A stretch of 32,224 bases of DNA from a virus. A program made the position numbers and the translations under genes. Below the pieces are notes generated by a model. The model was given only the letters and a program-made list of their open reading frames with translations. It ran no database searches and had not been told where the DNA came from. The DNA lies in the UHGV virus genome UHGV-0122054; one strand, written 5' to 3'. How positions within the stretch are numbered: position 1 is the first letter of the stretch; each line of letters starts with the position of its first letter. This document shows positions 12,191 through 13,346 of this stretch, in pieces.

Positions 12191-12685
12191 ATGAACCGTG
12201 TTCTGTGTGTGGTGATTATTGTCATGCTGGTAGCCTGTGGTGTGCTTAGTCTGGGGCTGAATCATTACCGCGATAACGCCATCACCTACAAAGCGCAGCG
12301 CGATAAAAAAGTCAGTGAGCTGAAACTGGCGAATGCCACTATTACTGACATGCAGCAGCGCCAGCGAGATGTCGCTGCGCTTGATGCCAGATACACGAAG
12401 GAATTAGCCGATGCGAGAGCTGAAAATGAAACTCTGCGCGCTGATGTTGCCGCTGGTCGTAAGCGCCTGCGGGTCAACGCCACCTGCCCCGGTACCGTGC
12501 GTGAAGCCACCGGCACCTCCAGCGTGGATAATGCAACCGGCCCCCGACTGGCAGACACCGCTGAACGGGATTATTTCATCCTCAGAGAACGGTTGATGAC
12601 AATGCAGAAGCAGCTGGAAGGGGCGCAGGAATATATCCGCACTCAGTGCACTAAGCTGGCTTTTTATTATCCGGAGGATACATGA
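12191..12685 (+). CDS. Rz inner-membrane spanin (i-spanin)
   Basis: N-terminal TM helix ([16 protein letters not shown]), coiled-coil periplasmic domain, embedded +1-frame Rz1; track ORF 12107 is an upstream extension. Confidence 0.8.
12411..12596 (+). CDS. Rz1 outer-membrane lipoprotein spanin (o-spanin), embedded in Rz
   Basis: Lipobox LVVSAC and Pro-rich mature region ([18 protein letters not shown]); may start at the internal Met (12426). Confidence 0.75.
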
Positions 12686-12906
12686 AGAAATTACGGGTAA
12701 CCGTAGAACCTTTTCAGGGAACAATTCCGTTCCGTATTTTGCAGCGTGGTCGTGTTCTTGTTGAAGGTTCGTTCAGTGGTAAATGTACGCAATTACACTC
12801 CCGGACCTTTCAGGTGAATGCCACGAATGAAGAGCTAACCGTGGAGTGTACGATGAATGCCGCTAAATGCCGCATGGTATCCGCTGCATTACAACCAGTG
12901 TGTTGA
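12682..12906 (+). CDS. Hypothetical protein (74 aa), translationally coupled to Rz
   Basis: ATGA overlap with Rz stop; GGAGG 5 nt upstream; no signal peptide or recognised domain. Confidence 0.45.
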
Positions 12907-13104
12907 GCGACCTTATTATCCATGCGCGGTATTGTCGCCGTATTCCTGCATTAACAGAGACCGCAGCCCGACAGGGAGACTCCTCTGCGCGAGTGTGCGG
13001 GGATAATCAAAAACGATACACACCGGGGTTTACCGCGTTAACGGAGCGCGGCGTTGTCCCCTCATAGTCGCCTGTCCGGTGCGATGGTGGAAGAAACCGA
13101 ACGT

Positions 13105-13305
13105 TCATTTCTCGTTATTTGTCATGCTGGCCGGGCGCAGATGCGTTGCATCTGTTGCCAGCCTTCTCCTGCAGGCTTCAATAACCCACGCTGAAAAGTT
13201 ACCGGACCCTTTATGCTCAAGGGCGATGTTGATCTGTTCAATTATGTGATTGGGGAAACGGATATTGCGGGTTGTGGTTCTGCGGGTCCGGTTTTTCGAT
13301 GACAT
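13105..13305 (-). CDS. Ribbon-helix-helix (Arc/Mnt-like) DNA-binding protein
   Basis: Minus strand; ATG at 13305 with AAGGA about 8 nt upstream; RNIRFPNHIIEQINIALEHKGSGNFSAWVIEACRRRL fits the RHH strand-helix-helix pattern (compare P22 Arc). Track ORF extends to 13365. Confidence 0.55.
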   Translation of the reverse strand: MSSKNRTRRTTTRNIRFPNHIIEQINIALEHKGSGNFSAWVIEACRRRLATDATHLRPASMTNNEK

Positions 13306-13346
13306 ATTTATTTCCTTTACTGATTGCCATATGACGGGGATTTTAC

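Follow-up and report, generated by a model that had tools for sequence, protein, structure and literature searches.

Accessory modules and a candidate structured RNA in the Rz-to-cos interval of a lambdoid Escherichia coli prophage

In the Rz–cos region of the phage phi80, a lysogen-expressed antisense defence gene, tai, and a late counter-defence gene of 76 amino acids (aa), ati, are organized as a noncontiguous operon, in which late read-through silences tai (PMC11364771). Other known occupants of Rz–cos regions are morons such as bor and lom of lambda; a classical moron comes with a promoter and a terminator of its own and often lies antisense. In E. coli K-12, the pair ybcW–ylcI was listed as a convergent excludon in RNA-seq data by ExcludonFinder (PMC12288877), which at least suggests that the K-12 paralogue ylcI is transcribed. 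Here, a comparable interval was analyzed in the UHGV virus genome UHGV-0122054, a stretch of 32,224 nucleotides (nt) referred to below as the window. An earlier annotation made from the letters alone (the sequence-only reading) had noted two open reading frames (ORFs) there, namely a 74-aa gene coupled to Rz and an oppositely oriented 66-aa gene for a lone ribbon-helix-helix (RHH) regulator, which might repress a neighbouring moron or the packaging genes or be an antitoxin-like factor.

The window is a lambdoid (lambda-like) E. coli prophage, and the interval in question is its 'Rz-to-cos' accessory hot spot. It was concluded that this hot spot probably contains three independent modules and not a regulator with its target. 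These are the 74-aa late-operon gene, a conserved non-coding block and a gene of the ylcI/ynfO family. The conserved, covarying block is the most novel item of the interval and possibly a new RNA element in an ordinary accessory hot spot.

The conserved non-coding block

The sequence-only reading had placed about 200 bp between the two ORFs. The distance is 198 bp, but it is not an empty spacer, since it holds a conserved block (12921–13102, plus strand). The block was found at 75–97% identity in 398 phage records, whatever its flanks. Diverged copies (70% identity) are located in lambda (46885–47035) and in DLP12 between borD and ybcV. Substitutions in the block showed no 3-periodicity, stop codons occurred in nearly all frames, and indels were not multiples of three, including one of 10 nt. 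On these grounds, its annotation as a peptide gene (orf48 of VT2-Sakai, ORF B85 of an Stx1 phage) was rejected. The block was also rejected as an intrinsic terminator, as a scan of 12907–13104 found none on either strand; on the minus strand, the U-run begins about 12 nt after the hairpin, as read from the sequence. A search of 11500–14100 against Rfam with permissive filters gave no match to the block at expectation values (E) up to 1, and the Rfam scan of the whole window gave no gathering-score match on it. A literature search with the sequence string of the block found no functional study.

The structure of the plus strand was modeled using RNAalifold on 87 distinct block sequences obtained by a pattern scan of viral contigs. 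The model consists of domain 1, a long bulged hairpin (12929–13019), domain 2, a hairpin of variable sequence (13025–13061), a closing helix (12924–12926/13069–13071) and domain 3, a further hairpin (13074–13102), all on the plus strand. It contains 48 pairs, and 97.6% of the cells are paired; when the register was slid, only 33–60% were paired. Double-sided changes were found in 17 pairs versus 5.8 ± 1.6 in shuffles (0/500), and the number of double-sided cells was 71 versus 14.3. Domain 2 was swapped for several unrelated sequences, each of which still forms a hairpin, and domain 1 is retained in lambda and DLP12, with a flip of CG to GC. In addition, frequent alternations between UA and UG and between CG and UG, as well as one invariant U-G, can pair on the plus strand only, that is, in the sense of the late transcript. 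The pattern indicates that the block would fold as a plus-strand RNA structure of the late transcript, which is absent from Rfam and apparently undescribed.

The late-operon gene behind Rz

The ATG of the 74-aa gene (12682–12906, plus strand) is located at 12682–12684 and overlaps the TGA of Rz (12683–12685), and a GGAGG Shine–Dalgarno sequence (SD) is located at 12673–12677, 4 nt before the ATG. Both the ATGA overlap and the SD had been pointed out in the sequence-only reading and were confirmed. Its suggestion that the gene is expressed with the lysis genes is a natural one, as the gene is located in the late operon, directly behind Rz and with its own SD. The alignment showed that the SD is kept as GGAGG, GGGGG or GGAGA in all homologous loci. 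In PPyecE_EH1910 and in Salmonella (loci L003/L004), Rz ends earlier, at a TAG that precedes the ATG by 24 nt. In the window and two sister lineages (L002/L008), this position reads CTG, CAG or CCG, and Rz gains eight codons that carry it into the ATGA. Since the coupling results from this mutation of the Rz TAG and the extension of Rz, it is secondary, and it appears to be a recent by-product of stop-codon loss, not an ancestral design.

The protein was attributed to PHROG 2571 (2.7e-28), with residues 1–73 aligned to positions 100–172 of the 291 profile positions. The remote family members P0189 and P0195 matched the same positions. The profile is built on a 280-aa protein in which the domain forms the middle third; the window gene is a stand-alone version of this domain. 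Searches of Pfam and NCBIfam gave no match, and the single match of a PDB sequence search (E 0.64) was taken as chance. Modeling with AlphaFold 2 led to an all-beta model with a mean predicted local distance difference test score (pLDDT) of 89.6, so the protein is confidently predicted to be a small cytoplasmic beta-sandwich of seven strands with no characterised relative. The earlier statement that it has no recognisable features is therefore true of Pfam and NCBIfam and does not extend to PHROG or to the fold. Homologues in E. coli and Salmonella hold the length of 74 aa down to 61–64% identity, with 19 invariant columns. An exhaustive profile search revealed a family of proteins of 72–81 aa and a few longer carriers of the domain; multi-stretch matches to proteins with cystatin or TQ repeats were regarded as artefacts of these repeats and set aside.

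The 74-aa gene was found in 26 of 50,697 phage records, whereas a query with the Rz-containing region matched 419, and for this reason it was regarded as accessory cargo of the late operon and not as lysis machinery. It is located 3' of Rz/Rz1 in phages with packaging genes of either the lambda type (Nu1/A) or the HK97 type (HNH/TerS/TerL). One remote member of the family lies behind a DUF2570/LysC spanin pair, another lies between Q and the holin gene, adjoining a GrlR-like gene, and the 280-aa archetype lies between Rz and Nu1. A spanin or lysis component would be expected to carry a membrane anchor or an export signal and to be present wherever the cassette occurs; neither was found for the 74-aa protein, the sequence of which contains no signal peptide, lipobox, or transmembrane or other hydrophobic segment. 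As a separate observation, a 225-aa fusion protein with a C-terminal domain of this family is encoded in the locus L036 (131–1147) and is directly followed by an Acb2/Tad1-hairpin gene (Pfam 3e-16). Acb2/Tad1-hairpin proteins are a family of anti-CBASS/anti-Thoeris sponges.

In most lineages (L004, L011, L014–16 and L018–20), a gene of about 68–73 aa is located directly 3' of the 74-aa homologue. It was assigned to PHROG 4280 with matches of about 1e-35 to 1e-38, and its consensus is MFV..GLK.D.DN.GWV.GW.VVR..PWHL.GVYAT... Copies were found at 3265–3471 in L004, 626–838 in L011, 3841–4059 in L014, 449–670 in L018 and 477–746 in L020. The partner gene is 5'-truncated in L005–L007 and missing in the lineage of the window, where the 198-bp gap was rejected as its remnant, as tblastn showed no trace of the partner there. 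A third conserved small gene (PHROG 1935/8618) was observed upstream in L011 and L014–16.

The ratio of nonsynonymous to synonymous substitution rates (dN/dS), estimated by the Nei–Gojobori method, was 0.16–0.5 in most pairs of 74-aa genes, which argues that the ORF encodes a selected protein. Among the other copies without a partner gene (window, L002, L003), it was 0.16–0.33. Between the window and the otherwise close copy of O55:H7 CB9615 (L008 3001–3225), the ratio was about 1.2, with 18 nonsynonymous and 5 synonymous differences, a value that could fit either diversifying selection or a relaxed constraint in one of the lineages.

The ylcI/ynfO-family gene and the flanks of the interval

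The second ORF, described earlier as encoding a minus-strand 66-aa protein divergent from the HNH gene, was confirmed at 13105–13305, with a gap of 41 bp (13306–13346) between its start codon and the HNH ATG at 13347. An alternative version of 86 aa with a GTG start was not backed by homologues, and the protein was taken as 66 aa from the ATG, which has the SD AAGGAAA 7 nt upstream. The protein belongs to the YlcI/YnfO family (DUF3950), as it matched Pfam PF13132 with 69 bits against a cut-off of 25 (E 3e-19), NCBIfam NF041551 with 35.3 bits against a cut-off of 30 (E 8.9e-9) and PHROG 949 (2e-31). The family core, MS(S/T)KNRTRRTTTRNIRFPN..IEQINIAL..KGSGNFSAWVIEACRRRL, has 28 invariant columns in an alignment of 20 members, all of which are present in the window protein; the homologue search gathered 827 database clusters. 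Three parts can be distinguished in YlcI, namely a basic N-terminal arm, a probable RHH core at residues ~12–50 and a C-terminal tail that varies. The sequence is nearly invariant over the first ~50 residues, and different lineages have exchanged tails. For codons 1–49 of ylcI, dN/dS was 0.02–0.10 at a saturated dS of at least 0.7, and 22 synonymous and 5 nonsynonymous differences separate the window gene from that of DLP12; judged by these substitutions, the core is under very strong purifying selection.

The gene is always antisense to the late operon and located just before the packaging unit: ylcI is divergent from nohD in DLP12 and ynfO from nohA in Qin. The lambda genome (NC_001416, locus L029) contains an unannotated YlcI/YnfO homologue on the minus strand (48148–48303; 87% over 52 residues), about 200 bp from cos. 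Thus, ylcI is not a 'lone' regulator, as had been supposed, but a standard gene that occupies this place in lambda, DLP12, Qin and about 155 phage records. Two further candidates were set aside. A tblastn match to a 'transcriptional repressor' of a Pasteurella phage is antisense to the annotated gene, and a minus-strand ORF of 65 aa in the corresponding position of L014 bears no resemblance to YlcI. A literature search on DUF3950, YlcI and YnfO found no functional study.

The fold of YlcI is likely RHH, of the Arc/Mnt type. The AlphaFold 2 monomer has an extended N-terminus followed by helices at residues 18–31 and 33–54, with a mean pLDDT of 68.9; no strand was assigned, which is to be expected of a monomer. 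All 19 matches in a Foldseek search against the PDB were RHH-type proteins (ParD2, NikR, Arc, YiiF, TCP), with non-significant E of at least 2.3 and template modelling (TM) scores of 0.37–0.54. Alignment with hhalign put T-R-N-I-R-F-P-N of YlcI in register with Q-F-N-L-R-W-P-R of Arc at E 0.024 and a probability of only 2%. The same strand motif is in register with F-N-F-R-M-P of Mnt, and the hhalign results for CopG and Mnt were weaker than for Arc. A weak match was also found to the HicB-like antitoxin PHROG 497 (E 0.0074), the C-terminal domain of which is RHH. The Arc/Mnt-like assignment of the sequence-only reading therefore agrees with the topology, with the exclusive retrieval of RHH proteins by Foldseek and with the motif register, and none of these matches is significant.

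The gap between the start codons is 41 bp, and any promoter of ylcI would have to overlap the 5' end of the HNH gene. A scan for consensus promoters gave a sole match, the weak CTGACA-17-CAGAAT at 13435–13407 on the minus strand, which is not conserved in related loci. In the comparison of k-mers, the 11-mer ACACTGAATAC (13382–13392) was found again, oppositely oriented, in the ylcI leaders of lambda, DLP12 and Qin, 12–22 nt before the start codon; by our own estimate, about 0.03 such matches would arise by chance. Other HNH-type loci keep only CTGAATAC of it. This 11-mer is a candidate operator half-site and should be read as only a lead. Repeats of TGAATA are located at 13386–13408.

The surroundings of the interval are well represented in databases. 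A stretch of 1.85 kb around both ORFs matched the chromosome of E. coli NCTC86 at 100% and is at least 99% identical in 383 RefSeq records. Both ORFs are already annotated in NCTC86, as a "hypothetical protein" (74 aa, WP_000736383.1) and a "YlcI/YnfO family protein" (WP_000095741.1), and each exact protein was found on at least 1000 contigs. The RefSeq gene order is lysozyme, three tiny ORFs, "lysis protein" (Rz), the 74-aa protein, YlcI/YnfO on the minus strand, HNH endonuclease, TerS, TerL and major capsid protein. Our own scans agreed with this order and matched Rz, the embedded Rz1, HNH and the terminase small subunit. The i-spanin gene Rz (12191–12685, plus strand) matched Pfam PF03245 (Phage_lysis) at 4.4e-51, and the o-spanin gene Rz1 inside it (12411–12596, plus strand) matched PF06085 at 1.7e-21. 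The HNH endonuclease gene (13347–13712, plus strand; Pfam PF01844 at 2.7e-7, PHROG 589 at 1.8e-44) is the first gene of a packaging unit of the HK97 type and is followed by the genes for the small and then the large terminase subunit.

Several further features were observed around the interval. Between the endolysin gene and Rz (11626–12190), the three tiny ORFs of RefSeq are hydrophobic and encode 43, 51 and 28 aa; related phages have an Ant/P22_AR_N antirepressor-like gene of 189 aa in this slot in their place. The gap between the HNH and terminase genes (13803–13931) contains at least five direct and inverted copies of (A)TGTTAAC, among them a perfect 12-nt palindrome pair, GCAAATGTTAAC/GTTAACATTTGC; these copies are probably binding sites for terminase or a host factor in the cos region. 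Gathering-score matches to Rfam in the window were the sok antitoxin RNA (2551–2726, 120 bits), three tRNA genes (6875–7121) and two copies of the small RNA STnc100 (7200–7390 and 7668–7877, 136 and 165 bits) upstream of a 618-aa ORF and the lysis genes.

Module independence, rival readings and known systems

The co-occurrence of the modules was counted in 87 oriented loci with at least 1.5 kb on both sides of the block. One side of the block carries the 74-aa gene, bor or nothing, and the other carries ylcI, a TonB_C lipoprotein moron, ybcV or nothing, and these modules combine freely with either type of packaging genes. The 74-aa gene and ylcI are independent modules, not a unit. One further arrangement was observed in O55:H7 CB9615 (L008 3430–4020), where an insertion of about 620 bp with a 113-aa lipoprotein-like TonB_C gene (Pfam 1.4e-13) lies exactly between the block and ylcI. 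The equivalent position in the window, which is without the insertion, is ~13096.

A single regulatory unit of YlcI with the 74-aa gene (or with an adjacent moron), in which YlcI represses neighbouring cargo or packaging genes, is hard to credit. The short distance between the two genes and the usual role of RHH proteins as local repressors speak for it, and ylcI is present in 13 of the 16 loci with the 74-aa gene, but this co-occurrence is confounded by shared ancestry. Moreover, lambda, DLP12, Qin and many Shiga toxin (Stx) phages have ylcI but not the 74-aa gene, L004–L006 have the 74-aa gene but not ylcI, and the YlcI core stays about 85–100% identical next to bor, ybcV/ybcW, TonB_C or none of them. 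The 74-aa gene is in the late operon and can do without a promoter to itself, and no shared operator-like repeat was found. Quite improbable, too, is the proposal that YlcI acts as an orphan antitoxin of the RHH type, or as an anti-toxin decoy, against a toxin encoded elsewhere. Its small size and variable tail resemble antitoxins, PHROG 497 is a HicB-like antitoxin family, and the top Foldseek match was the ParD2 antitoxin at the non-significant E of 2.3; however, the window and 10 other contexts showed no toxin-like gene adjoining ylcI, PADLOC gave no hit, and the variable tail coincides with the boundary of cargo insertion and looks like a recombinational replacement. The antitoxin-like factor of the sequence-only reading is left with no toxin gene as its counterpart. 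As for the 74-aa ORF, a decaying relic that lost its function in the window lineage with its partner gene seems unlikely. The loss of the partner, its 5' truncation in L005–7 and the dN/dS of about 1.2 with the O55 copy would fit such decay, but identical, intact copies of the ORF were found on at least 1000 contigs, the SD is conserved, and the other partner-less copies have dN/dS of 0.16–0.33. A role as a lysis accessory or regulator that modulates, for example, spanin or endolysin action is rather unlikely. Spanins act in the envelope and the 74-aa protein has no signal peptide, lipobox or transmembrane segment, its gene is in 26 phage records versus 419 for the Rz-containing region, and its coupling to Rz is secondary. 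One remote homologue lies upstream of the holin gene by the GrlR-like gene and others lie among Lom/BamE-type morons, and the similarity of the protein to XepA is that of a generic beta-sandwich.

For the block, an action at the DNA level, as a recombination 'linker' or a protein-binding site with an incidental RNA structure, is possible but doubtful. In favour of it, the block invariably lies where variable cargo modules meet, the insertion point of the TonB_C moron coincides exactly with the 3' edge of the block, and the fold of a single sequence is not significantly stable. Against this stand the 17 double-sided pairs (5.8 ± 1.6 in shuffles, 0/500), with slid registers at 33–60%, the replacement of domain 2 with the hairpin retained, the UA-to-UG and CG-to-UG alternations and the invariant U-G that pair on the plus strand only, and the CG-to-GC flip in lambda and DLP12; a pure linker would need none of these.

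The boldest reading, less likely than not, is that the block is an undescribed cis-acting structured RNA between the lysis and packaging genes, from lambda to Stx phages, which may be a processing or stability site, for example of the RNase III type, or an insulator against the surrounding antisense cargo genes, with YlcI as a lysogeny-expressed RHH regulator that is silenced by late read-through. The explanation that we favour, as probable in outline, is as follows. The ~180-nt block, with its three hairpin domains, would be a cis element of the late transcript and would serve in the processing or stability of the long late mRNA, for example as a site of the RNase III type. The 74-aa gene would be sporadic cargo of the Q-dependent late operon that uses its own SD for translation, is accidentally coupled to Rz here and has been deprived of its usual ~70-aa partner in the window lineage. 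Its product may be a small soluble beta-sandwich that binds to some other protein in the late stage of infection and most plausibly serves as an accessory factor of the counter-defence or self-immunity type rather than as lysis machinery. YlcI would be an RHH-like dimer that binds DNA; its gene, opposed to the late operon, would be expressed in the lysogen from a promoter overlapping the HNH start and shut off by antisense read-through of Q-antiterminated late transcription, as in an excludon or noncontiguous operon.

Several points weigh against this explanation. The window copy of the block taken alone folds no better than shuffles (z −1.37), and the shuffle control of covariation ignores phylogeny, that is, the relatedness of the sequences. 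The RHH assignment is statistically non-significant on all lines, with a monomer pLDDT of only 69. None of the 20 YlcI members matched a Pfam RHH family at E up to 10, the profile searches proposed for the RHH fold yielded only PHROG 497 in its favour, and a PDB sequence search gave no match. No convincing ylcI promoter or operator was found by the scan, the alignment of sister loci or the k-mer comparison. Finally, what was established concerns the identity of the genes, selection, the independence of the modules, and the conservation and covariation of the block, and from these we infer every functional step.

The two ORFs by themselves are common, annotated prophage genes, which removes the impression of a special regulator–target pair. 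YlcI/YnfO, a y-ome family of K-12 and lambda, may be a tractable candidate for a lysogeny-specific regulator and is probably a DNA binder of the Arc/Mnt type. The 74-aa family, usually accompanied by a ~70-aa partner in a recognised accessory or immunity hot spot just before the packaging genes, is a reasonable candidate for phage counter-defence screens. A covarying RNA that occurs in hundreds of lambdoid and Shiga toxin phages and is not in Rfam could bear on the processing of long late mRNAs.

A comparison with known systems indicated both similarities and differences. YlcI of DLP12 and YnfO of Qin have the same size, position and orientation as the window protein and are about 85–90% identical to it in the N-terminal 50 residues. 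Their C-terminal tails differ from that of the window YlcI, and in DLP12 and Qin a cos region of ~390 bp precedes Nu1/NohD, whereas the window ylcI abuts an HNH gene of the HK97 type at 41 bp. Like Arc and Mnt of P22, YlcI is small and is predicted to consist of an extended strand and two helices, and its x-N-x-R-x-P aligns with the DNA-contacting strand, namely residues 9–15 of Arc and 7–12 of Mnt. Unlike in these repressors, there is an extra basic, S/T-rich N-terminal arm, ylcI is located outside the immunity region, and its operator is only a candidate; Arc and Mnt show no significant sequence or profile similarity to YlcI.

The 74-aa gene occupies the same variable slot as bor and lom of lambda and other Rz–cos morons, and elsewhere bor replaces it upstream of the block. 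It differs from classical morons in its sense orientation, in having no promoter or terminator found in the scan and in lacking an export signal. As with tai/ati of phi80, a small beta-rich gene on the late strand lies beside a minus-strand gene in the same Rz–cos region. However, neither tai nor ati is homologous to the genes of the interval. For Ati/AtiEcA, tblastn found nothing, and hhalign with the 74-aa family gave E 0.2 and a probability of 0.3%; Tai is a 204-aa protein that is not RHH. Despite these differences, the tai/ati architecture is the best available model of the way in which a sense late gene and an antisense lysogeny gene would probably be expressed in the interval studied here.

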